Of a stretch of 64,000 bases of DNA, positions 196 to 32,702 are shown in pieces. The position numbers were made by a program, and so were the translations under genes. The notes beneath the pieces are model-generated. The model had not been told where the DNA came from. It made no database searches and was given only the letters and a program-made list of their open reading frames with translations. Source of the DNA: Chloroflexota bacterium (GTDB lineage: Bacteria; Chloroflexota; Limnocylindria; Limnocylindrales; CSP1-4); assembly GCA_021783095.1 (NCBI GenBank), contig JAJXUG010000011.1, positions 22,322 to 86,321 on the forward strand, written 5' to 3'. Position 1 is the first letter of the stretch. Each line of letters opens with the position of its first letter.

Positions 196-1437
196 ATGGC
201 GGCGAAGACCATCCTGTTGATCGGCACGCTCGACACCAAGGGTCGGGAGTACGCCTACGTGCGCGACCTGATCCGGGCGCGCGGTCACCGGACGATCGTG
301 CTCGATGCTGGGGTCCTCGGCGAGCCCGCGTTCGAGCCTGACAGCCCTGCGGACAAGACCGCGCTCGCCGGGAACGGCAGCCTCGCGGAGCTGCGAGAGC
401 GGCGAGACCGGGGGCACGCGCTGGAGATCATGGGGCGGGGCGCCCGCGCCGTCGCGCTCGAGCTGCTGTCGGAGGGCAAGTTCGACGCCGTCATGGCCAT
501 GGGCGGGTCAGGCGGGACCTCCATCAGCGCAACGGCGATGCAGGCGCTGCCGGTTGGCATGCCCAAGCTGATCCTCTCGACGATGGCGTCGGGCAACGTG
601 GCTCCGTACGTCGACGTGAAGGACATCACGATGATGTACTCCGTCGTCGACGTCGCCGGCCTCAACAGTGTCTCGCGCCGCGTCATGGCCAACGCGGCCA
701 ACGCCATCAGCGGCATGGCGGAGCAGGAGGTCGGGGCCGCCGAGCAGAAGCCCCTGGTCGCCGCCACGATGTTCGGCGTCACGACGCCGTGCGTCGACCG
801 GCTCCGCGAGCGGATCGAGTCGGCCGGTTTCGAGGTCCTGGTCTTCCACGCCACCGGCAGCGGCGGCCGCGCGATGGAGTCGCTCATCGCCGACGGGTTC
901 GTGGCTGGCGTCGCCGACGTGACGACCACCGAGTGGTGCGACGAGCTCGTGGGCGGGGTGCTGTCCGCCGGCCCGGCACGGCTTGATGCTGCGGCGAGGG
1001 CGGGCGTTCCCCAGATCGTGTCGCTGGGTGCCCTCGACATGGTCAACTTCGGCCCGAAGGAAACTGTTCCCGAGCAGTTCCGCGGCCGGAACCTCTATGT
1101 GCACAACCCGCAGGTCACCCTGATGCGCACCACGCCAGACGAGTGCCGTCAGCTCGGCGAGATCATCGCCGGCAAGCTGAACGCAGCGACCGGCCCTGCC
1201 GCGCTGTTCATCCCGCTTCGGGGCGTGAGCATGATCGACGCCGAGGGCATGCCGTTCCACGACCCGGTCGCCGACGCCGCCCTGTTCGACGCCCTGCGGG
1301 CGCACCTCGACCGCTCCAAGGTCGATCTGGTCGAGATCGACGCCAACATCAACGACCCGGCCTTCGCGGACGCGATGGCCGATCGTCTGCTCGCCGAGCT
1401 GGGCGCTGCACCGGCCCTGGACACCCCGCGAACCTAG
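196..1437 (+). CDS. Tm-1-like ATP-binding domain protein (UPF0261)
   Basis: IGTLDTKG, GGSGGT, ATMFGVTTPCV, FHATGSGG and GALDMVNFG motifs; AAGGAGG RBS. Confidence 0.92.
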   Translation: MAAKTILLIGTLDTKGREYAYVRDLIRARGHRTIVLDAGVLGEPAFEPDSPADKTALAGNGSLAELRERRDRGHALEIMGRGARAVALELLSEGKFDAVMAMGGSGGTSISATAMQALPVGMPKLILSTMASGNVAPYVDVKDITMMYSVVDVAGLNSVSRRVMANAANAISGMAEQEVGAAEQKPLVAATMFGVTTPCVDRLRERIESAGFEVLVFHATGSGGRAMESLIADGFVAGVADVTTTEWCDELVGGVLSAGPARLDAAARAGVPQIVSLGALDMVNFGPKETVPEQFRGRNLYVHNPQVTLMRTTPDECRQLGEIIAGKLNAATGPAALFIPLRGVSMIDAEGMPFHDPVADAALFDALRAHLDRSKVDLVEIDANINDPAFADAMADRLLAELGAAPALDTPRT

Positions 1438-1497
1438 CCCGGCGCCCACCCCAGCGTTCAGCCAGTCCTCGCGCGTCCCGTCGAAAGGAGCACCGCG

Positions 1498-2340
1498 ATG
1501 CCGTTCATCCCGCGCGCAGAGGTGGAGCGCCGCCTTCGGGAACAGATCGCCGCCGGTCGGCCGATCGTCGGCTGCGGGGCCGGAACCGGGATCTCGGCCA
1601 AGATGGCCGAGGCGGGCGGCGCCGACATGGCGATCATCTACAACTCGGGGCGGTACCGGATGGCGGGCCGCGGGTCATTGGCCGGCCTGCTGGCGTACGG
1701 CGACGCCAACGCGATCGTCGTCGAGATGGCGGCCGAGGTCCTGCCGGTGGTGCGGTCGATGCCGGTGCTGGCCGGGGTCAACGGCACGGATCCGTTCCGG
1801 ATGATGCCGGTGTTCCTGCGCCAGCTGCGCGACATCGGCTTCGACGGCGTCCAGAACTTCCCGACCGTCGGCCTGATCGACGGCGACTTCCGGCGCAACC
1901 TCGAGGCGACGGGGATGTCCTACGAGCTCGAGGTGGCGATGGTGCGCGAGGCGCATGCTCTCGACCTGTTCACCTCCCCGTACGTGTTCGACCCGTCGCA
2001 GGCACGGGCCATGGCCGAGGCGGGCGCCGATCAACTGGTGGCGCACGTCGGCCTGACGACCGCGGGCACGATCGGCGCGGGCGTTGCGTTCACGCTCGAC
2101 CAGGCGATCGAGCGGGTGCTCGCGATCGCCGAGGCGGGGCGCTCGGTGCGGCCCGACATCATCGTGCTGTGCCACGGCGGCCCGTTCGACGAGCCCGGGC
2201 AGGTGGGCGAGGCGCTGCAGCGCATGCCCGGCGTGCACGGGTTCTTCGGCGCGTCGTCGATCGAGCGGCTCCCCACCGAGCGGGCGATCCGCGGGCAGGT
2301 CGCCGAGTTCAAGGCCCTCGCCACGGCCGGCGCTGCCTGA
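1498..2340 (+). CDS. Phosphoenolpyruvate hydrolase-like TIM-barrel protein (usual partner of UPF0261)
   Basis: [37 protein letters not shown] and [12 protein letters not shown] motifs; AGGAG RBS. Confidence 0.92.
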
Positions 2341-2374
2341 CGAACTCAGCCATTCGCGGGCGGGCGCCCGCGCG

Positions 2375-2536
2375 TTTCTGCCAGGCAGTACAAGGACGAC
2401 TGCGCGCACCGGCTGAAATCGTCCCTTCGGCGTGTGGCGACTGCCTGGCGGCGATTCGGCCCGATCTGGCCCGATACCCGCGTGTGCGGGGCCGCCCCAC
2501 AGGATCCGTAGTCGTCCTTCTACTGACTGGCGGAAC
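2375..2536. repeat. About 30-bp imperfect inverted repeats flanking about 100 bp (MITE/REPIN-like), between convergent genes
   Basis: 2375-2404 TTTCTGCCAGGCAGTACAAGGACGACTGCG matches the reverse complement of 2507-2536 at 25/30; partial third copy near 2439-2451. Confidence 0.65.
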
Positions 2537-2576: not shown

Positions 2577-4703
2577 CTAGGCGCGCCCGGCGGCCACCTC
2601 GTCGGCACGATTCCGGCCTGCCAGCAGGATCAGGTCCTCGTGGAGCTCGAACCACACGCCGTGGTACGAGTCCACGCGCGGTGACGCCACGTACTTCCCG
2701 TTGCCCGAGGCGACGGCCTCGGCTGCGGCGGCAAGGCGGACGCCGTACTGGGCCAGCCTCGGCAGGCCTTGCGCAGCGGCGTCCAGCCAACGGACGACCT
2801 CGGCGTGCAGGGCCGCCAGCGATCCCAGCACCGCCGCGTCGTACGCGGCGTCCGTGTGCGGGTTGGGCGCTCCTTCCTTGAGCTGCCAGGCCGTTGCGAA
2901 CTCCTTGACGCGCCGGTCGAGCACGATGAAGGCGTCGAGCGCAGCGCTTGCGGCCGCCGTGCCCCACGACTCGCCGTCCGAGGCCACCAGCGCGTCGCCG
3001 ATCGCCTTCCCGGACGCTGTGAGCCTGAACGCGCCCGCGGACGGCTCGACGAGACCGCTCCCGACAAGGTCGTCCAGGATGGCCTTCGCCTCGTCGGCGC
3101 TGCAGCCGAGGGAGACCGCCACGCTGCCCGCGTCGCGGAAGTCGCGCACGACGAGCATCCGAAGCGCGTCGTCGGAGGTCGCGGAGCCGGTCGCGGCGCT
3201 GGCCGATTCGGCCTTGGGCGCGTCACCTTCCACCTCCCCGATGGCGATGCCGAGCTCGCGCGCCCACCCGAGCAGCACCTTGGCCTCTGGCACGACCTCC
3301 TCGACGCCCGCGGCACGACCCTCGAACACCTCGCCCGTGGACCCGTCGATGGAGAGCAGCGTGCCGGCCGGGAACGTCCGGCTGGCGATGGTCACCACGC
3401 CGCGAGCCGGGTCGGGCACCACCTCGGACGCCCCGACCACCGCCGGCGTGTTCCAGTCGCGGGCGACGACCGCGGCATGCGAGGCGAAGCCTCCGGTCGC
3501 TGTCAGGATCCCGCACGCGCGCGCCATGCCGTGCACGTCGTCGGGCGAGGTCTCCGCGCGGACAAGCAGTGGGTCGCGACCGGACTCCGCGGCCGCAATC
3601 GCCGCCTCGGCGGTCAGCGCCACCTCACCGCAGACCAGGCCCGGCGAGACACCCAGCCCCCGCGTCAGCGCGGAACCGGCCTGCCCGCCCTGCGCCACGC
3701 GCTTCGGCGGGCTCGCGAGGATCGCGGCGACCCGGCGGACGGCGGCGTCGCGGGTGAGCGGGAACGCGGGGTCCTCGGCCATCTCGACGGCCATCCGCAG
3801 CGCAGCCGGCTCCGTCCGCTTCGCCGTCCGGTCCTGGAGCATCCAGAGCCGGCGCCGCTCGATCGTGAACTCGATGTCCCGCGCGTCCGCGTAGTGGTGC
3901 TCGAGGCGCTCGGCATACGCATGAAGCTCCGCCGCCACCTCCGGCATCCGCTCCTCGAGACACGAGACCGGCAGGGTGTCGTGCGTGCCCGCCACGACGT
4001 CCTCGCCCTGGCCCCGGAACACCACATCGCCGTACAGCTGCGCCTCGCCCGTCGCGGGGTTGCGCGTGAACAGCACCCCGGTGCCGGATTCGTCGCCCAG
4101 GTTGCCGAAGACCATCGCCTGCACCACCACGCCGGTGCCCAGCGTCTCGCTGATCCCCTCGTGGGCGCGGTAGGCCTTCGCCTTCTCGCCGTTCCAGGAG
4201 CGGAACACCGCCTCGATGGCGCCGCGGAGCTGCTCCCACGGGTTGGTCGGCACCGTCTCCACGCCGACGACCGACCGGTAGAGCGCGTGGAACCGGTCGT
4301 GGCAGTTGCGCGCGAAGGCCGGGTCGGCCGATGCCGCCGCAAGCCCGTGCTCCGTCTCGCGGTTCAGCCCCAGGTTGAGGATCGTCTCCATCATCCCGGG
4401 CATCGACACGGGCGCCCCCGACCGCACCGACACGAGGAGCGGCTCCGCCGCGTCGCCGAACCGCCGTCCCACGATCGCCTCGAGCCGCGCCATGTGCTCG
4501 CGGATCTCGGCGTCAAGGCCCTCGGGCCAGCCCTCGGCGAGAAAGCGGTTGCAGGCCTCGGTCGTGATGACGAAGGCCGGGGGCACGGGCAGGCGCAGCG
4601 TCCGCGCCATGGCGTTGAGCCCGGCGGCCTTGCCCCCGACGAGCAGCTTGAGCTGGTCGAACGGGAGGTCGTGCAAGTGGTCGTACGTGTACACGAAGGG
4701 CAC
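2577..4703 (-). CDS. Pyruvate phosphate dikinase-like protein (ATP-grasp plus phospho-His domain) lacking the pyruvate-binding barrel, with a C-terminal wHTH/Rv1126c-like domain
   Basis: GGKAAGL, VSVRSGAPVSMPGMMETILNLG, QAMVFGN, GEDVVAG, DIEFTIE and GGFASHAAVVAR motifs; C-terminus ends in DSYHGVWFELHEDL. Confidence 0.85.
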   Translation of the reverse strand: MPFVYTYDHLHDLPFDQLKLLVGGKAAGLNAMARTLRLPVPPAFVITTEACNRFLAEGWPEGLDAEIREHMARLEAIVGRRFGDAAEPLLVSVRSGAPVSMPGMMETILNLGLNRETEHGLAAASADPAFARNCHDRFHALYRSVVGVETVPTNPWEQLRGAIEAVFRSWNGEKAKAYRAHEGISETLGTGVVVQAMVFGNLGDESGTGVLFTRNPATGEAQLYGDVVFRGQGEDVVAGTHDTLPVSCLEERMPEVAAELHAYAERLEHHYADARDIEFTIERRRLWMLQDRTAKRTEPAALRMAVEMAEDPAFPLTRDAAVRRVAAILASPPKRVAQGGQAGSALTRGLGVSPGLVCGEVALTAEAAIAAAESGRDPLLVRAETSPDDVHGMARACGILTATGGFASHAAVVARDWNTPAVVGASEVVPDPARGVVTIASRTFPAGTLLSIDGSTGEVFEGRAAGVEEVVPEAKVLLGWARELGIAIGEVEGDAPKAESASAATGSATSDDALRMLVVRDFRDAGSVAVSLGCSADEAKAILDDLVGSGLVEPSAGAFRLTASGKAIGDALVASDGESWGTAAASAALDAFIVLDRRVKEFATAWQLKEGAPNPHTDAAYDAAVLGSLAALHAEVVRWLDAAAQGLPRLAQYGVRLAAAAEAVASGNGKYVASPRVDSYHGVWFELHEDLILLAGRNRADEVAAGRA

Positions 4704-4760: not shown

Positions 4761-5651
4761 TCAGACCACAGCGACGGGATCCACCATGGACCCCGTGGCG
4801 CCGCGGATCTTGACGGGGAGCGCGACGAACAGGAACTCGTGGACCTTCTGGCGCGCGAGCTCCTCGAGGTCGAGGCTCTCCATGATGTAGACGCCCCGCT
4901 CGATGAGGAGCGCCGTGTGGACCGGCTGCGGGTTGCCGGTGGGGCCGGGGTCCGGCGCGGGCTGGACCTCGAACGTCTCGGTGTCGGAACCGGCGGCGAT
5001 GACGCCCCGCTCGAGCAGCCAGCGGGCCGCGCTCGCGTCGGGGCCGGCCGTCTTGTGCGCGGCCATCCGCTCGGCATCGGGCCACAGGCCCATGTACCCC
5101 GTCCGGATGACGACGACGTCCCACGGGCGGACCTCGACGCCCTCGGCCGCGCAGATCGCGTCCATCTCGGCCGCGTCGATCGCCGAGCCCCTCGGCAGGC
5201 AGTCGATGCCTCGGTAGGCCGGGGCGTCGACCAGCACGCCGCGCGTGAAGAACGGCGGCATCTTGGACGCGTCGCCGTGCACTGGGCCGAAGTCGGTCAG
5301 ATGCTCATCGGCGCGGCCCCCGCCGTACCAGTGCATGTCGTCGTCCACCGTCATGTGGGCGAGCGCGTCCATGTGCGCGCCGGAGTGGGTCGTCGCCATC
5401 ACGTACTCGGCCATGTACCCGAGGCCCGCGTCGTTGACGGGTCCCCAGGGCTGGGCGCCCGCGACGCGGATGCCGCGAGGCGTGCGGAAGTTGAGCACCT
5501 GGAAGGGCGGGTGGCCGGGGAACAGCGGCATGCCCGGGAACCGCGGCGCCGCGAGCGAGATCATCCGCCCCTCGCGGACCAGCCTCGCAGCCGCCACCAC
5601 CTGCTCCGCGGGCATCTCGCCCACCGGCCCGACCTCGGCGTTCGCGCTCAT
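4761..5651 (-). CDS. Cyclase family (kynurenine formamidase-like) metal-dependent hydrolase
   Basis: HSGAHMDALAH, VIRTG, GSDT, PVHTALL and PVKIRGATGSMVDPVAV motifs; ATGA overlap with the upstream gene. Confidence 0.88.
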   Translation of the reverse strand: MSANAEVGPVGEMPAEQVVAAARLVREGRMISLAAPRFPGMPLFPGHPPFQVLNFRTPRGIRVAGAQPWGPVNDAGLGYMAEYVMATTHSGAHMDALAHMTVDDDMHWYGGGRADEHLTDFGPVHGDASKMPPFFTRGVLVDAPAYRGIDCLPRGSAIDAAEMDAICAAEGVEVRPWDVVVIRTGYMGLWPDAERMAAHKTAGPDASAARWLLERGVIAAGSDTETFEVQPAPDPGPTGNPQPVHTALLIERGVYIMESLDLEELARQKVHEFLFVALPVKIRGATGSMVDPVAVV

Positions 5652-7933
5652 CGTCGTCCCTCCGCGTCGCCGGGCACCGGCCCGGCCTGAAGCGCCCGCC
5701 AGACGCGCTCGGGCGTGAGCGGCAGATCTCGGATCGCCACGCCGGTCGCGTCCCGGATCGCGGCTGCCGCCGCCGGTGCCACGCACAGCAGCGCGCCCTC
5801 GCTCATGCCCTTGGACCCGTACGGACCCGGCCCGTCGGCGTTCTCCACGGCCTCGCTCCGCAGTTCGCGGGGCAGGTCCATCGAGGTCGGGATCCGGTAG
5901 TCGATGGCCCCCAGATTCCGGATGCGCCCCTCCTCGTCGAAGATGTAGTGCTCCATGAGCGTGTGGCCAAGGCCCATGATCGCCGCGCCCTCGTCCTGCA
6001 TCCGGACCTGGAGCGGGTTGAGCGCCTTGCCGACGTCGCTGACCGTGACGTGCCGGTGGATCGTCACGTCGCCGGTGTCGGCGTCCACCTCGGCCTCGAT
6101 GGCCGTGCAGTTGAACTCGAAGAACGCGGGGGCACCCGACAGCGGGTGCCCTGCCTCCGCCTCCTTGCGCATCTCGCCGAGGCCCGTGATCTCGCCGCCC
6201 AGCTTGCCGAGGCCGGCCGTGAGCACCTCGCGGATGGGCAGCTCCCGGCCGGATGCCAGGCGCACGAGCCCGTCGGCAACCGTGACGTCCGCCTCGTCCA
6301 GGCCCTGCTGGGCGGCGGCCATCGTCCGCAGCTTCGCCTGGATGTCCCGGCAGGCGGCGAGGACCGCGTTCCCCATGAGCACCGTGGAGCGGGAGGCCGA
6401 GGTCTGCTGGTCGTACGGGACGAGGGCGGTGTCGCCCATGGCGACCGTGACCCAGTCGAGGGGCGCGCCGAGCTCGTGGGCCGCGATCTGCGCGAAGACG
6501 GTCCGAGCGCCCTGGCCCATGTCCGATGTGCCGGCGTAGACCACGGCCGAGCCGTCGGCCAGGAGCCGCACGATCGAGTAGCTGAGGCCGGTCGTCGGCC
6601 CAGACTTGATGCCCAGCGCGATGCCGCGGCCATGGCCGGGCGGGCAGGGCTGGTCCCATCCGATCAGCTCGGCCGCCTTGCGGACGGCCTGCTCCCACTC
6701 GCCGTCGCAGGGCGTGTCGAACGGGATGAACCGGTCGCCCTTGCGGGCCAGGTTGCGCAGCCGCACCGCCACGGCGTCGATGCCCAGCTCCCGGGCGCCC
6801 TCGTCGATCGTGGACTCCACGGCCCAGTTGATCTGCGGGTTGCCGAAGCCGCGGAACGCAGTGGACGGCACGGTGTGCGAGAGGATCGCCCGGGCGACGA
6901 TGCGGACGGCCGGCACGTTGTAGGGGCCCGCCGCCGGGTACGAGCCTTTCCCCACCACGCGGTCCGCGATGTCGGTATAGGCGCCGATCAGGTAGTCGGC
7001 CTCGATGTCGTGGAAGGCGATCCGGCCGTCCGAGGTGAAGCCGGTCCTGACGCGCGCCTCGCAGGAAGCACGCCGAACTGCCTGGAAGGTCTCCTCGAGC
7101 GTGAGCACCAGGCGCACGGGCCGGCCGAGCCGGAGGGCGGCGAAGACGACGGCGGGCTCGTACTTCGCGTGCTGCTTGCCCCCGAAGGCGCCGCCCGGGT
7201 CGGGCGCGTACACCCGCACCCTCGAGAGCGGGAGGCGGGTGAGCCCGGCGATGGTCTTCTGGAGCCAGTTGGGGTGCTGGATCGTGGACCACACGGCCAC
7301 GCCATCGCCGTCTGGCGCGGCCATGAACGCGTGCGGCTCGATGGCGAAGTGCGTGACCATCGGGAAGGTGTAGCGGCGCTCGACGATCGTCAGGCCGTGC
7401 TCGGCGGCCGCGGCCTCGACGTCGCCCCACGCCACGACGTGCTCGTTGAGGACGTTCGTCTCACGCCGTGGGTCCTTCGGCCGCAGCGAGGGGTCCTGAA
7501 CCAGCGGCGCGTCCGCCGCCAGCGCCCCGGCAACCGTGAACACCGCCGGGAGGGCCTCGTAGTCCACGCGCACGGCAGCCGCGCCGGCCTCGGCCTCCTC
7601 CTTGGTGTCCGCCACCACGAGCGCCACGGGGTCGCCCTGGTACTTCGTCTCGCCCGTGGCCAGCACCGGCCGGTCCACGTTCTGCGGGCCGAACCGCGGC
7701 ATGGGCTGCGGGAGGTCGTCGGCGGTCAGCACGAGGCGCACGCCGGGCAGGGCGAGCGCCGCGGAGCCGTCGATGCGGTCGATCCGGGCGTGTGCAACGG
7801 GCACCGTAACGAGCTTCGCGTGGAGCGCGTCCGCGACGCTCAGGTCAGCGAGGTAGCGCTGCGCGCCCGTCACCCGGTCGATCCCGCCGACGCGGTTGGG
7901 CGAGGAGCCGATCGTGCCGTCGCGCGCGCTCAC
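5648..7933 (-). CDS. Xanthine dehydrogenase family molybdopterin-binding (large) subunit
   Basis: GGAFGGK, AFRGFGNPQ, DMGQG, SASRST and GPYGSKGMSEG motifs; GTG start overlapping the upstream stop. Confidence 0.92.
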   Translation of the reverse strand: MSARDGTIGSSPNRVGGIDRVTGAQRYLADLSVADALHAKLVTVPVAHARIDRIDGSAALALPGVRLVLTADDLPQPMPRFGPQNVDRPVLATGETKYQGDPVALVVADTKEEAEAGAAAVRVDYEALPAVFTVAGALAADAPLVQDPSLRPKDPRRETNVLNEHVVAWGDVEAAAAEHGLTIVERRYTFPMVTHFAIEPHAFMAAPDGDGVAVWSTIQHPNWLQKTIAGLTRLPLSRVRVYAPDPGGAFGGKQHAKYEPAVVFAALRLGRPVRLVLTLEETFQAVRRASCEARVRTGFTSDGRIAFHDIEADYLIGAYTDIADRVVGKGSYPAAGPYNVPAVRIVARAILSHTVPSTAFRGFGNPQINWAVESTIDEGARELGIDAVAVRLRNLARKGDRFIPFDTPCDGEWEQAVRKAAELIGWDQPCPPGHGRGIALGIKSGPTTGLSYSIVRLLADGSAVVYAGTSDMGQGARTVFAQIAAHELGAPLDWVTVAMGDTALVPYDQQTSASRSTVLMGNAVLAACRDIQAKLRTMAAAQQGLDEADVTVADGLVRLASGRELPIREVLTAGLGKLGGEITGLGEMRKEAEAGHPLSGAPAFFEFNCTAIEAEVDADTGDVTIHRHVTVSDVGKALNPLQVRMQDEGAAIMGLGHTLMEHYIFDEEGRIRNLGAIDYRIPTSMDLPRELRSEAVENADGPGPYGSKGMSEGALLCVAPAAAAAIRDATGVAIRDLPLTPERVWRALQAGPVPGDAEGRR

Positions 7934-8493: not shown

Positions 8494-8498
8494 GGGCG

Positions 8499-10277: not shown

Positions 10278-10385
10278 CGTGTCCTTTCTCGATCGGGGAA
10301 GGGGCTGGGACGCTGGGGGACGGGACGCTGGGGGACGGGCGGCGCTCGAGCCCGGGGGCCCGGGCGCCGCTGCCGTGCGTCTCGG

Positions 10386-17237: not shown

Positions 17238-17246
17238 GCGGCGTGA

Positions 17247-21603: not shown

Positions 21604-21679
21604 TGGCAAAGGGTCGGGTGGCGCAGCCGGATCGGACAGGGCCAGTTGGAGCGATGAGACAGGAAGGAGGACCACCCGA

Positions 21680-21744: not shown

Positions 21745-21782
21745 CGGGAGACGACGCGCGCCGGTTCGACAGGAGTCAGTCC

Positions 21783-26084: not shown

Positions 26085-27079
26085 CGGCTTGCCCTCCGGA
26101 TCTCGAGCAGGCTGCCGAACATCACGACGCCGATCAGGATCACGCCCTGCGCGACGATCGCGAGGTTGGTGTCGATGCTCATGAATGTCATGTCGGTGCG
26201 AACCATCTGCAGCACCACCACCGCGATCATGGGCCCGAGCACGCCGCCCCGGCCGCCGGCAAGGCTCACGCCGCCGAGCACGACGGCGGCGACGCTCTCG
26301 AGGGTGTAGGGGCCCGGGACCGGGGTCCCGATGCCCGTGCTCGCCGTGAGCGCCAGGCCGCCCAGGGCGGCGAACAGGCCGCCGACGACGTACGAGGCCC
26401 ACTTCGTGCGGCCCACGGGCACGCCGCTCCGGAACGCCGCCAAGGCGTTGCTGCCCAGGGCGTAGAAGGAGAGGCCGAGCCGCGACCGCGCGATCGGGAT
26501 CCACACGACGGCGACGACGATCAGCATGACGACAGTCGCCTTGGGGATCCAGTCGACCAGGATCGGCCCGACCGCGAGGTCCATCAGCCACGACGACGCG
26601 CCGCCACCGGGCGCCGGCCGCACGATCAGCGCGAAGCCGGCCCAGACGAACGACATCGCCAGGGTCACCACGATGTCGGGGACCTTGGTCGTCACGACGA
26701 GCGCGCCGTTGACCGCGCCGAGGGCGAGCCCCAGAGCGAGCACGCCGATCACCACGACGATCCCGAACTCGTCGGGCTGCTTGTACATCGCCGAAGCCGC
26801 GACGACGCTCGTGAGCGCCATCATCGACCCGATCGAGAGGTCGATCCCGCCCGAGATCACGACGACGGCCTGGGCGACGGCTGCGATCGCGAGCGGCAGC
26901 ACCGAGGTGCCCAGGCCCTGGATCGCGAGCACGCCGTAGCTCGGCTCCACGATCTTGGCGAACAGCAGGAGCACGGCGAGCAGGCCCAGCAGCCCGAACG
27001 TCCAGCCGTTGCGGCGCAGCACGTCGCGCCGGCCAACGAGCGACCGCCCGCGCGAGGCGAGTGTGGCAGTCGTGCTCAT
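26081..27079 (-). CDS. Sugar ABC transporter permease (RbsC-like)
   Basis: SGGIDLSIG, GSNALAAFRSG and AAVVLGGVSLAGGRG motifs. Confidence 0.92.
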   Translation of the reverse strand: MSTTATLASRGRSLVGRRDVLRRNGWTFGLLGLLAVLLLFAKIVEPSYGVLAIQGLGTSVLPLAIAAVAQAVVVISGGIDLSIGSMMALTSVVAASAMYKQPDEFGIVVVIGVLALGLALGAVNGALVVTTKVPDIVVTLAMSFVWAGFALIVRPAPGGGASSWLMDLAVGPILVDWIPKATVVMLIVVAVVWIPIARSRLGLSFYALGSNALAAFRSGVPVGRTKWASYVVGGLFAALGGLALTASTGIGTPVPGPYTLESVAAVVLGGVSLAGGRGGVLGPMIAVVVLQMVRTDMTFMSIDTNLAIVAQGVILIGVVMFGSLLEIRRASR

Positions 27080-28722
27080 GCAGGATCCTCCGACTGCTCG
27101 CCCGTCGGAGCATCGCCAGCACGTGGGGCCCCACCGCCGGGCCCATCCGGGTCAGCACCGGCTGCGGCGGTGTCGGCGCTGCCCGGCGCCCCGTCCGGGT
27201 TGGCGAACGCGACCGCGAGCTCTGGGATCACCTCGTCGGGCGCGAGGTTGTAGGCCGCCCGAAGCAGGGAGGGCTCGTCGGCGTCCGCCCCGGCGACCTG
27301 GGCCACGATGCGGCCGCCGAAGATGACGATGGCCCGGTCGCAGACCAGCTGGACCTCCTTGAGCTCCGAGGTGTAGAGGAGCACTGCTGCGCCACCCTGC
27401 GCGAGCTCGCGCAGCAGCACGTAGATCTGCTGCTTCGTCCGGATGTCGATGCCGCGGGTGGGGTCGAAGCAGAGGAGCGTCCGGACACCGGTGGCGACCC
27501 AGCGGGCGATCGTCACCTTCTGCTGGTTGCCGCCCGAGAGCCGCCGCACCTCGTTGCCCGCGCGGGCGTCGATCTGCAGGGTCGCGACGGCCTCGTCGAC
27601 GGTCTTGCGCTCGGCCCCCATGTTGAGCATGGCCCAGTGCCGGACCCCCGCCACGAACGGCAGGGCGATGTTCTCGCGGACCGAGCGCTGCATCATGAGC
27701 GCCTCGGCGCGATCGGCAGGCACGTACACGACGCCCGCCTGGATCGCGTCCGCCGGGTGGCGGAAGGCGACCGGCGTGCCATCGACGACGAGGCTGCCCG
27801 TGGCCGGGCGGCTGGAGCCCGCAAGGATGTCGAACAGCTCGTCCTGGCCCTGGCCCTCGAGCGCGACCACGCCCAGCACCTCGCCCGGGTGGAGGTCGAA
27901 CGACACCTCGTGGAGCCTGCGGCCGTCGCTCACGCCCCTGGCCGAGAGGCGCGGCTGGGCGTCGGCCGGTCGCGGCGCCGCCGCCGGGCGCTCTGCCGCC
28001 GCCGGGATCTCGGCTGCCATCGGGCCGAGCATCAGGTCCACGATCCGCTTGTCGGAGCCGGCCGTCACGTCCACGACGCCGACGGTCTCGCCCTCGCGGA
28101 GCACGGTCGCCCGGTCGCACAGCTCGGCGATCTCGATCATGCGGTGCGAGATGAAGATGACGGAGCTGTCGCCCCCCTTCCGGCGGCCGACGACCTCGAG
28201 CACCCGCTCGGTGAGGTTGGCCGGGAGTGCGGCGGTCATCTCGTCGAGCATCAGGACATCGGGCTCGTTCGCGAGCGCCCGCGCGAGGTCGATGACCCGC
28301 AGCGAGGCCAGCGGCAGGCGCCTCGCCAGGCTCGTGAGGTCGAGGTCCGGGAGGCCGAGCTCGCTGACCCAGTGCCGGAACGACTCGACGGGCGTGTTGG
28401 TGATCCGCAGGTTGGCGCGGATGTCGAGGTCGGGGATGAGGGACGGCTCCTGGTAGACCGAGACCAGGCCGCCCCGGCGTGCCTCGGCTGGGGAGTGGAC
28501 GGTCCGCTCCCGGCCGCGCACGGCGATCGTGCCCCCGTCGGGGTGGACCGCGCCGGTCAGGATCTTGACGAGGGTGCTCTTGCCAGCACCGTTTGCGCCC
28601 AGGAGGGCGTGGACCTCACCCGGGCGCACGCCCAGGGACGCGTTCCGCAGCGCCACGACGGCACCGTAGGTCTTCGAGATGCCGGTGGCCAGGAGCAGCT
28701 GGTCAGGCGGATTGGGCGTCAT
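27076..28722 (-). CDS. Sugar ABC transporter ATP-binding protein (RbsA-like, two NBDs)
   Basis: GANGAGKST, LSGGNQQK and DPTRGID motifs. Confidence 0.93.
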   Translation of the reverse strand: MTPNPPDQLLLATGISKTYGAVVALRNASLGVRPGEVHALLGANGAGKSTLVKILTGAVHPDGGTIAVRGRERTVHSPAEARRGGLVSVYQEPSLIPDLDIRANLRITNTPVESFRHWVSELGLPDLDLTSLARRLPLASLRVIDLARALANEPDVLMLDEMTAALPANLTERVLEVVGRRKGGDSSVIFISHRMIEIAELCDRATVLREGETVGVVDVTAGSDKRIVDLMLGPMAAEIPAAAERPAAAPRPADAQPRLSARGVSDGRRLHEVSFDLHPGEVLGVVALEGQGQDELFDILAGSSRPATGSLVVDGTPVAFRHPADAIQAGVVYVPADRAEALMMQRSVRENIALPFVAGVRHWAMLNMGAERKTVDEAVATLQIDARAGNEVRRLSGGNQQKVTIARWVATGVRTLLCFDPTRGIDIRTKQQIYVLLRELAQGGAAVLLYTSELKEVQLVCDRAIVIFGGRIVAQVAGADADEPSLLRAAYNLAPDEVIPELAVAFANPDGAPGSADTAAAGADPDGPGGGAPRAGDAPTGEQSEDPA

Positions 28723-28802: not shown

Positions 28803-29921
28803 TCATGCGCCCTTGCAGGACGACGGGACCGTGGCCGGGTTGTAGTCGGTCCAGCCGGGGATCGACAGGCTCAGCGGCCAGAGCGGATCCATGCCGGGCA
28901 CGGAGATCCACTTCTGGAGGTCGGCCTTGCCCTGGTCGGTCGTGTTGTCGAGGATCTGCGGGTCGAGCAGGACGGTGTTCGGCCGGCCCGCGCCGGTCGA
29001 CGGGGTGACCGTCTGGCCGGTGAGCAGCTTGTACGCCATGCTCACGCCCGCGCCGCCGACCGACGCAGTGTTGGTGACGGCTGCGCCGACGAGGCCGGGA
29101 TAGTCGGCCGGGTCGAGCAGCTGCTTGACGAACGCGCCGATGTCAGCGTCGGCGATCGGCACGAACTTCTTGTTGGCGGCCTTGATCGCATCGACGATCT
29201 GAGCGCCCATGCCGGAGGCCCAGATGCCCTGGATCTTGTCGTACTGGCCGCTGGAGATGAAGTCGTTGGTGATCTGGGTGGCCGTCTTGGGATCCCAGCC
29301 GGTGAAGACGCCGTTGACGTCCGGCACGACGGTGATGCCCGGGTTCTCCTTGAGGGCCTGCTTGAAGCCGATGTCGCGGTCCGAGTCAGCCGGGTGGCCG
29401 GCGAGGCCGCGCGTGTACCACACGGTCCCCTTGCCGCCAAGCTGCTTGAACAGCCAGGAGGCGCCGAGGTACGCGTACTTGACCTGGTTGTTGTACAAGT
29501 TCCAGGTGTTCGGGTCGGTCACGTAGGCATCGACCGAGACGGTCACGATGCCGGCCTTGTGGGCCTCGGCGAGCGCCGGGTTGAGCGCGTCGGGGTCGTT
29601 CGGGTTGAAGACGATCGCCTTGACGTTCTTGGCGATCAGGTCGCGCAGGTCGGACAGCTGCCCGGCCGCGTCCGTGTTGCGGTGGATCACGGTGATCCCG
29701 GAGATCTTGGACGTGCCCAGCGCCGCGACCTCAGCCTTGGCGGTGCAGACCTGCTCCTCGCGGAAGCCGTTCCCGACACCGCCGCCGTTGGAGTACCCGA
29801 TCGCGAACGGGCCAGTGGACTGCGCGCTCGCGGAGGGCGTGGCAGAGCTGCCGCACGCTCCCACGACCACGGCGATCGCCACGAGGGCGGCCAGCGCGCG
29901 GGCCTTGCCTAACTGCCGCAT
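28803..29921 (-). CDS. Sugar ABC transporter substrate-binding lipoprotein
   Basis: Signal peptide ending VVGAC; periplasmic-binding-protein type 1 features (AGIVTVSVD, RGLAGHPADSDR); AGGAGG RBS. Confidence 0.9.
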   Translation of the reverse strand: MRQLGKARALAALVAIAVVVGACGSSATPSASAQSTGPFAIGYSNGGGVGNGFREEQVCTAKAEVAALGTSKISGITVIHRNTDAAGQLSDLRDLIAKNVKAIVFNPNDPDALNPALAEAHKAGIVTVSVDAYVTDPNTWNLYNNQVKYAYLGASWLFKQLGGKGTVWYTRGLAGHPADSDRDIGFKQALKENPGITVVPDVNGVFTGWDPKTATQITNDFISSGQYDKIQGIWASGMGAQIVDAIKAANKKFVPIADADIGAFVKQLLDPADYPGLVGAAVTNTASVGGAGVSMAYKLLTGQTVTPSTGAGRPNTVLLDPQILDNTTDQGKADLQKWISVPGMDPLWPLSLSIPGWTDYNPATVPSSCKGA

Positions 29922-30010
29922 AAAGTGTCTCTCCTCCTTGTGGCGGCCAGAGGCCCCGAATGGGCCGCAGGTCCGCCAGGGTCCCCCAGCGATCGAACAG
30001 ACTCGACCCG

Positions 30011-30796
30011 TCACCCACCTCCTTGCTGGTCGATCGCACGGGCGAGCCGCCGCGCATGCTCTCGATAGGCCTGTTCGAACAGCTCTCGGGACCGCTCGGT
30101 GCCAACCGCGCTGGCGCGGGTGATCACTGGGGGCATGGCTCCCCGCTCCACGAGCAGCTCGGCGGTCCGAGACTTGATGGCGTTGACGATGGCCACCGCG
30201 CCGATTGTGGACAGCGGCCCGACCGGGCTCTCGAGTCCCGGGATCGAGACCGCCGCGTCATCGGGCGGGCTGCACAGGTCGAGGACGAGGTCGGCCTCCT
30301 CGAGGAGGCGAGCGCCGGCGGCCGGCTCCGGCGGTCCGGAGAGCGACTGCGCGACCGACGTCACGGCGATGACGCGCAGACCCCGGGCCCTGGCGCCGCG
30401 CGCCATCTCGACCGGGACGGCGGCCAGGCCACTGGCCGAGAAGATCATCATCACGTCGCGGGCGCCGAACCGGAAGTTGGACAGGATGACCTCCGCCAGC
30501 CCGGGCACCCGCTCGATGAACATCGCCTGGCGCTGGCCGTTGGCGCCCACCACCTGCGTGTGGAACGTCATCGACAGCTCGGCGATCGGGTTGAACCCCG
30601 GGTAGGAGCCGTAGCGCGGGAACATCTCCTCGACGGGGATCCGCGAGTGGCCCGTGCCGAAGAGGTGGACCAGGCCGTCCGAGGCGATCGCCTCCGCGCA
30701 CCACGCGCTCGCCGTCTCGATGCCTGCTGCCTGCGTCGCCGTGAGGCGCGCGAGCACCTCGGCAGCGGCGCTGAGCCAGGTCGCGGCGGCCGTCAC
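30011..30796 (-). CDS. SIS domain (UPF0309-like) sugar isomerase
   Basis: VHLFGTGHS, FSASG, VIAVTS and PVGPLST motifs; GTGA overlap. Confidence 0.88.
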   Translation of the reverse strand: MTAAATWLSAAAEVLARLTATQAAGIETASAWCAEAIASDGLVHLFGTGHSRIPVEEMFPRYGSYPGFNPIAELSMTFHTQVVGANGQRQAMFIERVPGLAEVILSNFRFGARDVMMIFSASGLAAVPVEMARGARARGLRVIAVTSVAQSLSGPPEPAAGARLLEEADLVLDLCSPPDDAAVSIPGLESPVGPLSTIGAVAIVNAIKSRTAELLVERGAMPPVITRASAVGTERSRELFEQAYREHARRLARAIDQQGGG

Positions 30797-31854
30797 CGGC
30801 CGACGACCTCGAAGGCCGGCACTCGCTCGACTGGCTCCCAGTGGCCGCTGCGCATCGACCGGTAGGCGGCGTCGAGGACCGCATTGACGGCGAACCCGTC
30901 CGCGAACGTCTCCTGCGGCGCGCGACCATCGGCGAAGGCCCCCACGACGTCGGCCATCATGAGGTCGTGGCCGTGGACGCGGACCTCGTCCGGGACGGGG
31001 AAGACCCAGCCCGTCTCGGCATCGGCCTTCTCGACGACGTAACCGGCCGGGCGCTCGACGAACGCCTTGAGGGAGCCCACGCTGATGTCGGTGATCAGGC
31101 GACCCGCGTCGCCGTACGCCTCGAAGCGGCCTTCGAGCCCGCCCTTGGAGCTCCAGGACACGTCGATGGTCGCGGCCCGCCCATCGGCCAGGCGCATCAC
31201 CATCATCGCGTTGTCCTCGCCCGTGGTCCGCTCGCCGTGGACGAGCGTCGCACCCCAGGCGAACACCTCCGCGACCTCCGCGTCCTTGCCGAACAGGAAG
31301 CGGGCGTACTCGGCCCCGTGCGAGGCCATGTCCAGCAGGGCGCCGCCGCCCGCGAGCTCGGCGTTCCAGAAGTGCGCCGCGTGGGGCCCCGAGTGCCCCT
31401 CGCGAGCGCGGACGGTCGTGAGTCGGCCGATGGCGCCAGCCTTGACCATGTCGCGCATCCGGAGCAGGTCGGGGTTGAAGATCACGTTCTCGAGGTAGGC
31501 GTTGAACACCCCGGCCTCGGTCACCGCGCGCAGCATCTCGCCCGCCTCGACCGCATTGCGCCCGAGCGGCTTGGTGCAGGCCACGCCCTTGCCGGCCGCG
31601 GCGAGCGCCACCACGGCGTCGCGGTGGAGGTGGTTCGGCAGCGACACGACGACGAGGTCCACCTCGGGGTCCGCGCACAGCTCGTCCAGCGACGCGATGG
31701 GCCGGCAGCCGAAGCGCGCGGCGTAGGCCTCCCGGCGGGCAGCGTCGGCGTCGCAGGCGGCCACCAGTTGGGCCTCGCGGACGTACCGCAGGCCCAGCGC
31801 GTGGAACTCGCCGATGAAGCCGCATCCGAGCATCGCGATCCGGACGGGCGCCAT
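30793..31854 (-). CDS. Gfo/Idh/MocA family oxidoreductase
   Basis: LGCGFIG, LPNHLH, CTKPL and GGGALLDMASH motifs. Confidence 0.92.
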   Translation of the reverse strand: MAPVRIAMLGCGFIGEFHALGLRYVREAQLVAACDADAARREAYAARFGCRPIASLDELCADPEVDLVVVSLPNHLHRDAVVALAAAGKGVACTKPLGRNAVEAGEMLRAVTEAGVFNAYLENVIFNPDLLRMRDMVKAGAIGRLTTVRAREGHSGPHAAHFWNAELAGGGALLDMASHGAEYARFLFGKDAEVAEVFAWGATLVHGERTTGEDNAMMVMRLADGRAATIDVSWSSKGGLEGRFEAYGDAGRLITDISVGSLKAFVERPAGYVVEKADAETGWVFPVPDEVRVHGHDLMMADVVGAFADGRAPQETFADGFAVNAVLDAAYRSMRSGHWEPVERVPAFEVVGR

Positions 31855-32597
31855 CAGTAGCCGCCCCCCAGCGCGCTGTTCCCGGCTGGCGCTGTGGCCA
31901 GACCCGCCTTCCGGGCCCGGAAGTCCAGGATGATCGCCTCCGTCGCCGTGGCGCCGATGCGGGTCACGCCCAGCTCCATCACGGCGAGCAGCGCGTCGAG
32001 GGTCCGCACCCCGCCCGCGGCCTTGACCTGGATGTCCGGGCTGGTGTTCGCGCGCATGAGGCGCAGGTCGTCATGGGTGGCGCCAGAGGGCGCGAAGCCG
32101 GTGCTCGTCTTGACGAAGTCCGCGCCCGCGGCCTCGGTCAGCCGGCACGCCCGGACCTTCTCGTCGTCGGTGAGGTAGGCGTTCTCGAAGATCACCTTGA
32201 CGATCGCCCCGGCAGCGTGGGCGACCTCGACCACCGCCGCGATGTCCGCCTGCACGTCGGCGTCCCGACCGGACTTGAGAGCGCCGATCTGGAGCACCAT
32301 GTCGATCTCGGTTGCGCCCTCGGCGAGGGCCTGGCGCGTCTCGGCGACCTTGATCGCGGTCAGGTGGTTGCCATGCGGGAAGCCGACGGTTGAGCCCACG
32401 TGCACGTCAGTGCCCGCGAGCAGCGCGGCGGCGCGCGCGACGTCGGCGGGTCGGCAGCAGACCGAGGCGACGTCGTAGATCGCGGCCAGCCGGCAGCCGT
32501 CCTCGATCTGCTGGTCGGTCAGCTCGGGGCGGAGCAGGCTGTGGTCGATCGTCTTGGCGATGTCGCGCTCAGACAGGCTGGCGATGTCGAGGGTCAT
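31854..32597 (-). CDS. deoC: Deoxyribose-phosphate aldolase
   Basis: IDHSLL, VGFPHG, GATEIDMV, KVIFE, FVKTSTGF and VKAAGGVRT motifs. Confidence 0.93.
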   Translation of the reverse strand: MTLDIASLSERDIAKTIDHSLLRPELTDQQIEDGCRLAAIYDVASVCCRPADVARAAALLAGTDVHVGSTVGFPHGNHLTAIKVAETRQALAEGATEIDMVLQIGALKSGRDADVQADIAAVVEVAHAAGAIVKVIFENAYLTDDEKVRACRLTEAAGADFVKTSTGFAPSGATHDDLRLMRANTSPDIQVKAAGGVRTLDALLAVMELGVTRIGATATEAIILDFRARKAGLATAPAGNSALGGGY

Positions 32598-32656
32598 GGC
32601 ACTCCGGGAGAGACGCCGCTTGCGGCCACGAGCCGCGGTGGTCGCGCGCTGGGTGC

Positions 32657-32702
32657 TCGATAATCGATGATGGATGCTAGGGGCAGCCCGACCGAGCGTC
32701 AA
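32657..32702 (-). promoter_or_regulatory. Sigma70-like promoter of the deoC operon with the shared operator-like motif
   Basis: - strand TTGACG-17-TAGCAT (32702-32674); TCGATAATCGATGATGGAT at 32657-32675. Confidence 0.7.

Follow-up and report, generated by a model that had tools for sequence, protein, structure and literature searches.

A candidate GntR-controlled regulon of about 30 genes in a Chloroflexota genome links a predicted two-component dikinase, a mini-PEPCK-like protein and a molybdenum enzyme to sugar-type genes

The 64,000-nucleotide stretch of Chloroflexota contig JAJXUG010000011.1 analyzed here (hereafter the window; 72% G+C, from a 3.96 Mb assembly in which the contig is called C33) carries several operons of dissimilar content: phosphotransfer proteins with a molybdenum enzyme of the xanthine dehydrogenase (XDH) family, a cupin with a transketolase, a small membrane protein, a dehydrogenase/hydrolase pair, and a deoC-led sugar operon. 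The high G+C had at first suggested an actinobacterium, an origin that was rejected because the source names of near-identical homologues point to a Limnocylindrales-like lineage of Chloroflexota. A first-pass annotation had placed one operator-like motif at the promoters of all of these and had read them as a single pathway for a compound with both a heterocycle and a sugar part. The locus raises the question of whether these operons are one regulon and what such a regulon might degrade. Using third-position G+C (GC3) framing with Pfam and NCBIfam searches of the window, we reproduced every gene label of the first-pass annotation. Its limits for the cluster (196 to 32702) proved too narrow, as a further operator and most of an alcohol dehydrogenase gene lie upstream of position 1, and a xylose-isomerase-like protein, a second oxidoreductase and a ROK-family regulator extend the cluster to about position 36463. 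On the evidence given below, this is a genuine, locally clustered regulon of a predicted FCD-type GntR repressor. That its approximately 30 genes make up one conserved, undescribed catabolic route, of a sugar-type and carbonyl-oxidizing kind, is the reading that we consider probable.

Four intergenic regions of the window were found to have ATCGATN heptad repeats in common, their core being the palindrome TCGATwATCGA. Searching both strands of the window with TCGATNATCGAT, allowing at most one mismatch, returned 12 matches against 1.01 ± 1.17 expected, and none of 100 shuffles reached 12. The matches collapse to the four intergenic sites and a single one-mismatch match at 55746, which lies inside a helix-turn-helix (HTH) gene and was rejected as an operator. 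Genome-wide there are four exact copies, all confined to a 34-kb part of C33: three belong to the window, and the fourth, s0, is 1012 bp upstream of the window start. The operators, which have no strand assigned, are as follows (coordinates of the window unless C33 is named):

C33:21310 to 21330: s0
12342 to 12362: s1, TTCGATAATCGATTACTGATG, between the divergent dikinase/Mo and cupin-transketolase operons
15591 to 15617: s2, with three heptads, between GntR1 and the membrane-protein gene
17975 to 17995: s3, CTCGATCATCGATGATACGG, in the 119-bp divergent region between GntR2 and the short-chain dehydrogenase (SDR) gene
32656 to 32676: s4, CTCGATAATCGATGATGGATG, between the xylose-isomerase-like TIM barrel (XI-TIM) gene and deoC

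Promoter-like -35/-10 pairs were found at 12389-12360 (minus strand), 17948-17976 (plus strand) and 32702-32674 (minus strand), each ending at the edge of an operator; two such pairs in 6 kb compare with 0.2 expected, and one in 300 bp with 0.0 expected. Site s1 overlaps the -10 box TACCAT (12365-12360) of its minus-strand promoter. Site s3 comes directly after the -10 box TATTCT of the SDR promoter, which ends at 17976, and s4 directly after the -10 box TAGCAT (32679-32674), whose -35 box is TTGACG at 32702-32697. Position 32702 had earlier been given as a TTG start of deoC; it belongs to this -35 box, and the deoC start is the ATG at 32597, with GGAG ahead of it. An operator at the edge of -35/-10 pairs is in the position expected for a repressor.

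The placing of one operator-like motif at the promoters of the named operons was thus borne out by the excess of matches, by the confinement of all four exact genome copies to 34 kb and by the promoters that abut them. ATCGAT-type words are also found in coding sequence, with 67 one-mismatch matches genome-wide, and this could suggest a chance AT-rich repeat or a mobile-element remnant with no operator function. Most of the matches outside the cluster have C or G at the center, in GC-rich coding context, and these look-alikes were not accepted as regulon members; sites on other contigs (C48:63876, C117:37753 and C71:16562) are single weak half-sites with one mismatch and no clear gene link, and were likewise dropped. 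Exact copies are exclusive to these loci in six genomes, their position before orthologous operons is conserved across species and classes, and their placement at -10/+1 is fixed. An origin by chance is practically excluded, and we give it next to no probability.

Comparison with related genomes carried the same signal further. Five more genus genomes (3.5-4.6 Mb) contain exact TCGATWATCGAT at 16 distinct sites, every one of which is either immediately ahead of deoC or within the orthologous module locus, and a reversed-pattern control in the same five genomes gave no matches. In 40-kb regions of 10 genus genomes, on which the counts out of ten given below are also based, the operator lies at most 300 bp upstream of the SDR gene in eight; in respective genomes it also precedes the PEP-utilizer, UPF0261 or cupin genes (see below). 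Loci L045, L048, L071 and L072, from other classes of Chloroflexota, have the same operator before SDR or PEP-utilizer genes, and their GntR proteins show 37-41% identity. In an Anaerolinea-type clade a wider-spaced variant, ATCGATAATATATTATCGAT, in which the ATCGAT half-sites are kept, was found before deoC (L075, about 9770-9795) and before a ROK gene (L064, about 6038-6060).

The regulators and the two genes that lie among them in the window are:

14740 to 15417, minus strand: GntR1, an FCD-type GntR regulator (PF00392, 54.1 bits; PF07729, 86.6 bits)
15602 to 16324, plus strand: DUF1097-like small membrane protein, assigned through homologues, with its true start likely near 15737 (MKALPLW...)
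16380 to 17237, minus strand: Y_phosphatase3 phosphatase (PF13350), co-transcribed with GntR2
17247 to 17915, minus strand: GntR2, an FCD-type GntR regulator (PF00392, 43.6 bits; PF07729, 97.1 bits)

The membrane protein itself has no Pfam match; a 39%-identical homologue in locus L065 matches DUF1097 (PF06496, E 9.6e-13). Both regulators have a GntR winged helix and a C-terminal FCD domain, as in the FadR-like subfamily. GntR2 is orthologous to the GntR found beside the module in genomes across the genus, and a tree showed GntR1 as a divergent duplicate of this "upstream" type. In that tree the module GntRs form one clade, separate from an unrelated FCD regulator, and those of the Anaerolinea-type clade form a branch of their own. 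Nine of the ten genus genomes have an extra FCD-GntR gene between the PEP-utilizer and mini-PEPCK-like genes (e.g., L002:12274-13011 and L004:12197-12892); the window genome is without this in-operon regulator and has two upstream-type copies in its place, one of them on a long branch of the tree.

We infer repression by GntR2 and its paralogue GntR1 because of the position of the operator, its exclusivity and its constant linkage with the regulator. A GntR dimer would bind TCGATwATCGA, often together with a third ATCGATN heptad, at the -10/+1 region of five promoters and would block transcription, so that about 30 genes would be repressed until a pathway intermediate releases the GntR. This arrangement resembles that of FadR/FCD GntR repressors in its winged helix-turn-helix and FCD domains, its palindromic operator at promoters and its divergent, autoregulated layout. 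It differs in having an AT-rich, heptad-repeated half-site, ATCGA (the usual GntR operator core is GT-N-AC), and in having two paralogues here with the in-operon paralogue missing. One operator and one GntR family support the earlier proposal that the Mo/phosphotransfer, cupin-transketolase, DUF1097-like, SDR/MBL (metallo-beta-lactamase-fold) and deoC-sugar units form a single regulon.

Apart from the genes listed above and the sugar operon, the regulon comprises the following genes (the dikinase/mini-PEPCK/Mo part is referred to as the module):

1 to 120, plus strand: 3' end of a Zn-dependent alcohol/polyol dehydrogenase (ADH) gene (ADH_N/ADH_zinc_N), which begins upstream of the window (L001:13372-14442)
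196 to 1437, plus strand: predicted ATP-dependent kinase of the UPF0261 (Tm-1 N-half/MarK) type (PF06792, PF23189)
1498 to 2340, plus strand: PEP-hydrolase-like TIM barrel, partner of UPF0261 (PF09370, 403.6 bits)
2577 to 4703, minus strand: truncated PPDK-like protein of 708 aa, with ATP-grasp and His swivel (GGFASH; NF004531)
4761 to 5690, minus strand, start approximate: Cyclase-family metal hydrolase (PF04199)
5648 to 7921, minus strand: Mo-cofactor large (L) subunit, XDH family (PF02738, PF20256, PF01315)
7930 to 8499, minus strand, start approximate: [2Fe-2S] small (S) subunit (PF01799)
8499 to 9368, minus strand: FAD-binding medium (M) subunit (PF00941, PF03450)
9387 to 10277, minus strand: mini-PEPCK-like P-loop protein of 296 aa, named from fold and motifs (earlier "HprK-like")
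10386 to 12119, minus strand: PEP-utilizer of 577 aa, putative substrate-binding and His-swivel component of a dikinase (PRK08296-like, similar to the C-terminal half of RPH/PigC)
12474 to 12839, plus strand: small cupin (Cupin_2, by Pfam)
12785 to 13747 and 13747 to 14691, plus strand: N and C halves of a split transketolase (NF004559, 301.6 and 260.7 bits)
18035 to 18820, plus strand: SDR dehydrogenase (Pfam, NCBIfam)
18858 to 19751, plus strand: MBL hydrolase (Pfam, NCBIfam)

The minus-strand operon runs from 12119 to 2577 in the order PEP-utilizer, 296-aa protein, XDH M, S and L, cyclase and PPDK-like protein. The N, pyrimidine-binding and C-terminal domains of transketolase are spread over two adjacent genes (the whole-protein cut-off of NF004559 is 488 bits). 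The ADH, for which the best NCBIfam matches (Tdh and IolM-like) are both under cut-off, is the lead gene of an ADH-UPF0261-PEP-hydrolase-like operon, and s0 lies 40 bp ahead of its start.

The module is well conserved within the genus. The PEP-utilizer gene was found in 33 of 36 other genus genomes and in none of 24 genomes of a small-genome sister family. The PPDK-like, XDH L, XDH S, mini-PEPCK-like, PEP-utilizer, GntR and MBL genes were present in all ten genus genomes compared and XDH M in nine. The SDR, at 65% identity or more, was seen in nine; in the tenth its place is beyond the edge of the fetched region. The SDR/MBL pair is conserved beside the module. ADH was found in six of the ten genomes, and the cyclase, cupin-transketolase and UPF0261/TIM genes occur in the same five. 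In four of those five (four of the ten) UPF0261 and the TIM barrel come directly before the PEP-utilizer on the same strand. This pair (the "Tm-1/TIM pair") had been included in the cluster by proximity only; it has an operator of its own and is the first part of the PEP-utilizer operon in these four relatives.

Linkage was also found across phyla. Few relatives of the 296-aa protein are known: a search of 1.84 billion representatives gave 178 clusters at E ≤ 1e-3. An alignment of the distant family members led to 32 loci, from Anaerolineae, Caldilineae, Dehalococcoidia, Thermoflexales, Acidobacteriota, Bathyarchaeia, Nitrososphaeria, Thermococci and Desulfurococcaceae. When these loci, ten of them shorter than 7 kb, were compared by tblastn with the window proteins, the PEP-utilizer was found in 17, GntR in 15, SDR in 15, UPF0261 in 11 and XDH subunits in 10, and the cupin, cyclase and membrane protein recurred as well. 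Nineteen of the distant loci were Pfam-annotated (50 of 131 open reading frames, from five of seven loci, and 149 of 176 open reading frames; L056, L059 and L067 were left out). Among these 19, a PPDK_N-only ATP-grasp protein of about 320 aa adjoins the P-loop gene in 10, a tungsten aldehyde:ferredoxin oxidoreductase (AOR) is present in 11, either AOR or an XDH-type enzyme in 17, and an NAD aldehyde dehydrogenase (NAD-ALDH) in two. The cyclase was present in 10, a cupin in five (adjoining the module in L042, L060, L065, L066 and L073) and HMGL-like proteins in five. Some distant loci have acetoin-type E1/E2, PGK, GAPDH-like, LarA or 2-oxoacid dehydrogenase genes and assorted phosphatases near the module, and ROK, or Gfo with SIS, stands beside it in L064 and L070. 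The fullest case is an Anaerolinea contig (L075 joined to L062) with the arrangement LarA<-AOR<-TK_C<-TK_N / DeoC-Gfo-XI-TIM-ROK-two binding proteins-ABC-two permeases-SDR-PPDK_N-mini-PEPCK-CoxG-XDH-PEP-utilizer-AOR-GntR, where TK is transketolase; its DeoC is 56% identical and a wider-spaced ATCGAT palindrome lies ahead of deoC. The co-occurrence of these gene families in other genomes, on which the first-pass annotation had let its proposal stand or fall, was accordingly found both in the genus and in distant phyla.

The first and last genes of the minus-strand operon encode the phosphotransfer proteins. The 577-aa PEP-utilizer aligns with the C-terminal halves of rifampin phosphotransferase (RPH), PigC and RedH, and weakly with the PRK08296 group. 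Its PEP-utilizers domain (residues 503-572) has the swivel motif TNAGDMVAH, with AGD replacing GG, and all 15 of the 15 homologues compared have the catalytic His; the protein scored below the PRK08296 cut-offs (best match NF006153, 153.2 vs 578 bits). The PPDK-like protein scored 490.5 bits against NF004531, over the cut-off of 456, and 361.8 bits against the Clostridium PPDK (1ggo). It is a true PPDK that ends after the swivel domain, keeping its own swivel His and lacking the PEP/pyruvate domain. PPDK_N is found in this separate protein (2577-4703), likely the ATP-grasp component of the dikinase. Its C-terminal extension of about 200 aa (window 2577-3200) has no Pfam match; by eye, this may consist of a winged-helix segment followed by a helical domain.

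From their architecture the 577-aa and PPDK-like proteins are predicted to be a two-component small-molecule dikinase of the PpsAB/CreHI/HpeHI type. The suggestion of activation by PEP-synthase-type phosphorylation was right in kind. A two-component architecture is described for HpeHI, CreHI and PpsAB in parts of PMC12167813, together with a swivel motif T/SxxGGxxxH that holds the catalytic His. PpsAB, CreHI, HpeHI/AcvAB and the fused rifampin phosphotransferase have the same division into an ATP-grasp protein and a substrate-binding protein with a C-terminal His swivel, and the PPDK_N-only partners of about 320 aa in the distant loci resemble HpeI. The pair studied here differs from these systems in scoring far under the PRK08296 cut-offs, in having as ATP-grasp partner a truncated true PPDK with its own swivel His and a tail of about 200 aa, in always having a mini-PEPCK-like gene alongside, and in its context of sugar, aldehyde and transketolase genes in place of aromatic catabolism.

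The 296-aa protein, with the motifs WxxGExQK, H107 and GESNHGKS in this order, matched no Pfam (E ≤ 0.01) or NCBIfam family, including PF01293/PEPCK_ATP and Hpr_kinase, and a sequence search of the PDB gave no match. Its predicted structure has a mean predicted local distance difference test (pLDDT) of 92.5. Compared with PEPCK, the model gave a Foldseek E of 1.5e-7 and a VIA Z of 12.4 over 248 of 296 residues (PEPCK residues 92-452, root-mean-square deviation 4.6 Å); compared with HprK/P, only the C-terminal half was covered (Z 10.5, 122 residues). A canonical PEPCK is encoded elsewhere in the genome (PF01293, 681 bits), and hhalign of the 296-aa profile with this protein gave a modest match (69 columns, E 2.9e-4, 40% probability) in which WxxGExQK, HPFHSSA and GESNHGK(T/S)M pair with YAGEIKK, LPMHSS and GLSGTGKTT of PEPCK. 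The label "HprK-like" is better replaced by mini-PEPCK-like, because the model superposes on PEPCK over its whole length and the GE.KK-type motif (here GE.QK), the His and the P-loop are aligned. In contrast to ATP-dependent PEPCK, the protein is half the size, has QK replacing KK and is without a Pfam PEPCK_ATP match. We also considered this P-loop protein as a PDRP/PSRP-like regulatory kinase of the swivel Thr, and dropped the idea because this Thr, expected two positions ahead of the catalytic His, is replaced by Ala in the PPDK-like protein and by Val in the 577-aa component. A complex prediction for the 577-aa component with the mini-PEPCK-like protein scored 0.00 against a mark of 0.32, which speaks neither for nor against binding.

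The three subunits expected of an XDH-family enzyme (molybdenum cofactor L, 2Fe-2S S and FAD M) are all present. The large subunit lies under the NCBIfam equivalog cut-offs for 4-hydroxybenzoyl-CoA reductase (4-HBCR) alpha (435.7 vs 994.55), XdhA (427.5 vs 780) and glyceraldehyde dehydrogenase alpha (332.9 vs 790), and the enzyme reaches no NCBIfam equivalog cut-off of xanthine, nicotinate or other heterocycle dehydrogenases. Because XDH-type enzymes, tungsten AOR and NAD-ALDH interchange in the same module, aldehyde or aldose oxidation appears to be the common step. The counts among the 19 annotated loci point to this as the simplest common chemistry, in place of the N-heterocycle hydroxylation that had been proposed for the XDH-type enzyme. 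A ring-opening amidohydrolase set was not found. Searching the PDB with the MBL gave an unnamed MBL as best match (57 bits), and with the cyclase one uncharacterized protein.

A Mo dehydrogenase, a lactonase and an SDR are known to act together on a deoxysugar in Pseudomonas simiae (Price et al., 2019; PMC6365646, as described in parts of that paper). That deoxyribose/deoxyribonate pathway likewise has a Mo enzyme of the XDH superfamily acting on a sugar, and a lactonase, and an SDR that makes a beta-keto acid; some bacteria have it together with the kinase/DeoC route. The P. simiae enzyme is described there as IorAB-like with cytochrome c, whereas the enzyme here is of the cytoplasmic FAD/2Fe-2S/Mo type; the window has no beta-keto-acid cleavage enzyme or glycerate kinase and has the dikinase and mini-PEPCK-like protein instead.

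The sugar cluster, with the operator s4 inside it, is laid out as follows:

24157 to 25089, minus strand: ROK kinase (Pfam)
25092 to 26090 and 26081 to 27079, minus strand: two permeases (BPD_transp_2)
27076 to 28722, minus strand: fused ABC ATPase (Pfam)
28803 to 30014, minus strand: binding protein (Peripla_BP_4)
30011 to 30808, minus strand: NagS-like SIS protein (Pfam; nearest solved relative NagS)
30793 to 31854, minus strand: Gfo/IolG-like oxidoreductase (Pfam)
31854 to 32597, minus strand: deoC (TIGR00126)
32730 to 33644, minus strand: XI-TIM (Pfam, NCBIfam)
33697 to 35034, minus strand, start probably later: second Gfo-family oxidoreductase (Pfam, NCBIfam)
34910 to 36463, plus strand, start approximate: divergent ROK-family transcription regulator of the sugar cluster (Pfam)

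The operon downstream of s4 is transcribed from 32597 to 24157 in the order deoC, Gfo, SIS, binding protein, ABC ATPase, two permeases and ROK kinase. DeoC scored 224.8 bits against the TIGR00126 equivalog (cut-off 117.3 bits). The Pfam families of the ABC system (Peripla_BP_4, BPD_transp_2 and a fused ABC ATPase) are of the monosaccharide type, and we take the system to be CUT2-like. The nearest solved relative of the SIS protein is NagS (106 bits); the alignment shows H53, R64, E94 and D179, all four essential residues of NagS, to be kept. NagS (SCO4393) is a GlcNAc-6-phosphate dehydratase of the UPF0309/SIS family, for which these residues are given as essential in excerpts of PMC12680351. 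In contrast to NagS, the SIS protein here has no nagA/nagB context, and its substrate is probably another sugar phosphate. The Gfo/XI-TIM proteins gave a weak match of 24 bits to 2-hydroxy-3-keto-glucal hydratase.

Gene order in this cluster (ROK regulator / Gfo-XI-TIM-deoC-Gfo-SIS-binding protein-ABC-two permeases-ROK) is kept in 19 of 20 genus loci, the twentieth being cut by a contig end. The operator between XI-TIM and deoC was present in nine of the 19 sugar operons, including some that are separated from the module by hundreds of kb or lie on a different contig, and genome G006 has none before deoC. These figures suggest that co-regulation of deoC is a recurrent, selected state and not a universal one. 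A GNAT acetyltransferase, an AraC regulator and an OYE/pyridine-nucleotide-disulphide oxidoreductase (2,4-dienoyl-CoA-reductase-like) are encoded at 19767-23957 of the window and have no operator; this trio, or at least the OYE gene, follows the sugar operon in 13 of 20 genus loci.

The UPF0261 protein matched Tm-1 with 290 bits and 9mpy_A with 257 bits. Both UPF0261 domains are present, and the lysine of its DTK motif aligns with the ATP-contacting Lys (Tm-1 Lys20, MarK position 16). Excerpts of PMC12624787 describe this lysine as contacting ATP and MarK as the only UPF0261 member with demonstrated activity. The protein here is like MarK and the N-terminal half of plant Tm-1 in these features and, as in Tm-1, where the two are fused, it is paired with a PEP-hydrolase-like barrel. 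It differs from MarK in context, which here is not aromatic and includes no carboxylase.

Taken as one route, the regulon would most likely act on a small oxygenated, sugar-type substrate such as a deoxy- or keto-sugar, a polyol or a sugar acid. This could be taken up through the monosaccharide-type ABC system and phosphorylated by the ROK kinase, with the NagS-like SIS protein carrying out a dehydration and the Gfo and XI-TIM proteins oxidoreduction and isomerization. DeoC would then perform an aldol cleavage and the split transketolase a C2 transfer. The Mo enzyme would oxidize an aldehyde or an aldose carbonyl, as an aerobic counterpart of the tungsten AOR of anaerobic relatives, and SDR and MBL may be a dehydrogenase/hydrolase pair of lactonase type. 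A keto or beta-keto-acid intermediate would be processed by enol-phosphate chemistry through the dikinase and the mini-PEPCK-like enzyme. The UPF0261 kinase, PEP-hydrolase-like barrel, cyclase, cupin, DUF1097-like protein and phosphatases would have accessory roles.

Enol-phosphate chemistry is suggested because a PEP-synthase-like dikinase is constantly paired with a PEPCK-like protein. Such a step fits neighbors that bind pyruvate- or oxaloacetate-like enolates (the PEP-hydrolase-like barrel and HMGL-like proteins), and it is the weakest and most interesting part of the proposed route. In a more specific and speculative form, to which we give a low chance, the dikinase and mini-PEPCK-like protein would be a hitherto undescribed enol-phosphate (de)carboxylation couple, with a keto compound other than pyruvate as its substrate (ketone <-> enol phosphate <-> beta-keto acid). 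If true, this couple would be an analogue of pyruvate -> PEP -> oxaloacetate, biotin-independent and within (deoxy)sugar catabolism, and would be common to Chloroflexota, Acidobacteriota and several archaeal lineages, tied to Mo- or W-dependent aldehyde oxidation.

Several observations weigh against the sugar-type, carbonyl-oxidizing reading. The core module is without nearby sugar genes in most loci and 10 of the 19 genus sugar operons have no operator; because of this the sugar operon may be a facultative or secondary member of the regulon. No sugar-acid dehydratase, BKACE or other obvious step joining the SDR/MBL products to the dikinase was found, and the profile match of the mini-PEPCK-like protein to PEPCK has the modest probability given above. 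The AOR family also holds non-aldehyde enzymes, and the nearest solved chain to the Mo large subunit is 4-HBCR alpha (340.6 bits; next 234.3 bits). In the SIS protein NagS S91 and N228 are replaced by M and S; these are described as important and not essential in excerpts of PMC12680351. Finally, the characterized two-component dikinases PpsAB, CreHI and HpeHI all phosphorylate phenols according to parts of PMC12167813, as does MarK according to excerpts of PMC12624787.

With phenols as the substrates of these dikinases and of the sole characterized UPF0261 kinase, an aromatic route through aryl phosphates, of the Cre, Hpe or Pps kind, has to be weighed. The substrate phosphorylated by the dikinase and UPF0261 would be phenolic and might come from a plant phenolic glycoside as its aglycone, SDR and Mo/AOR enzymes would oxidize its side chain from alcohol to aldehyde to acid, Y_phosphatase3 or MBL would remove the phosphate and the sugar operon would handle the glycone. 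The affinity of the Mo large subunit to 4-HBCR would fit this, as would the recurrence of aryl-phosphate-type phosphatases (Y_phosphatase3 here and LMWPc in L073). However, no ring-cleavage dioxygenase, CoA ligase, P450 or biotin carboxylase occurs in any examined locus, the PEP-utilizer is far under the PRK08296 cut-off (153 vs 578 bits), and the neighbors include PGK, GAPDH-like, LarA and 2-oxoacid dehydrogenase genes. The contiguity of the module with deoC, Gfo, XI-TIM, ROK, ABC and transketolase genes in Anaerolinea fits a sugar better, and we regard both the aromatic pathway and this assignment of its steps as distinctly unlikely. The conjugate of an N-heterocycle with a sugar (an unusual nucleoside or C-glycoside) favored by the first-pass annotation, in which XDH would hydroxylate and cyclase/MBL open the ring while deoC, transketolase and ROK take the sugar, seems improbable. 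Its shared regulon stood. In favor of the conjugate, the three-subunit XDH-family enzyme, cyclase and MBL are present, deoC is in the same regulon, and the Gfo and XI-TIM pairs resemble 3-keto-glycoside chemistry, as far as their weak 24-bit match goes. The heterocycle part gained no support, since AOR or NAD-ALDH takes the place of XDH or stands beside it in relatives and no heterocycle dehydrogenase equivalog cut-off is reached. Genes for a nucleoside phosphorylase, a nucleoside hydrolase or a phosphopentomutase were not seen among the Pfam matches of the cluster; its transporter is of a monosaccharide type, and the cyclase is missing in five of the ten genus genomes.

The regulon could instead comprise two or more separate pathways under one regulator, with the module handling a C2-C4 carbonyl (e.g., acetaldehyde from DeoC) and the sugar operon merely recruited in some species. 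This would account for the incomplete distribution of the deoC operator (nine of 19, with G006 lacking it), for the sugar cluster having its own ROK regulator, for the absence of sugar genes beside most distant modules, and for the alternation of possible aldehyde producers (DeoC, HMGL-like aldolases and acetoin-type E1/E2) beside the module. On the other side, deoC and the sugar genes, transketolase and the module are independently contiguous in another class, ROK, or Gfo with SIS, adjoins the module in L064 and L070, and several species have retained the operator even where the operon is not linked to the module, which argues for a functional tie and not for chance. We consider separate pathways unlikely and retain a single sugar-type, carbonyl-oxidizing route as the probable reading.

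Beside the genes described so far, the region just upstream of s0 (L001:10189-13261) has minus-strand genes for a HutC-type GntR with UTRA domain and an amidohydrolase, and a plus-strand gene for a calcineurin-like metallophosphoesterase that ends 50 bp ahead of s0. Further along the window is a corrinoid methyl-transfer cluster (44838-55155) with a pterin-binding protein, an MTHFR-like protein with DUF5981, a RACo-type corrinoid activase, a B12-binding protein and, next to each other, two MttB-family methyltransferases, whose open frames in the present calls (51972-53582 and 53383-55155) have about 200 nt in common. A HypF-type carbamoyltransferase of 860 aa (hydrogenase maturation) is encoded at 40350-42932, with no hyp/hydrogenase neighbors among the listed frames. 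Of the words sampled from window 9400-19399, 97-100% were present in DNA runs X1-X4, among which the source of the assembly may be found. Runs from soil, rhizosphere and rice paddy matched 5-11%, corresponding to conserved parts of relatives. An RNA-library run (X18) gave contigs of relatives over the PEP-utilizer and transketolase genes, which shows neither transcription nor co-regulation.

No description of the module was found in the literature searched, to which subscription journals and supplements did not belong; within the same bounds, this agrees with the earlier remark that no described pathway has this gene set. The regulatory logic and the superfamilies are of known kinds, and what is new is how they are combined, together with the mini-PEPCK family and a dikinase context that is not phenolic. 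The module is delimited by cis-regulatory and cross-phylum linkage evidence, and key parts of it are without an assigned function. Neither Pfam nor NCBIfam has a model for the mini-PEPCK-like family, the dikinase falls outside the clade specific for phenols, and the only known UPF0261 kinase activity, that of MarK, dates from 2025. The operator and GntR pair offers a direct experimental handle, as the substrate should become apparent from the compound that releases the repressor and from the one that the binding protein takes up. Carriers of the module belong to abundant, uncultured lineages of soil and sediment (Limnocylindria-like Chloroflexota, Anaerolineae, Acidobacteriota and Bathyarchaeia), and a new route of sugar or carbonyl turnover in these lineages, if true, would bear on carbon cycling.

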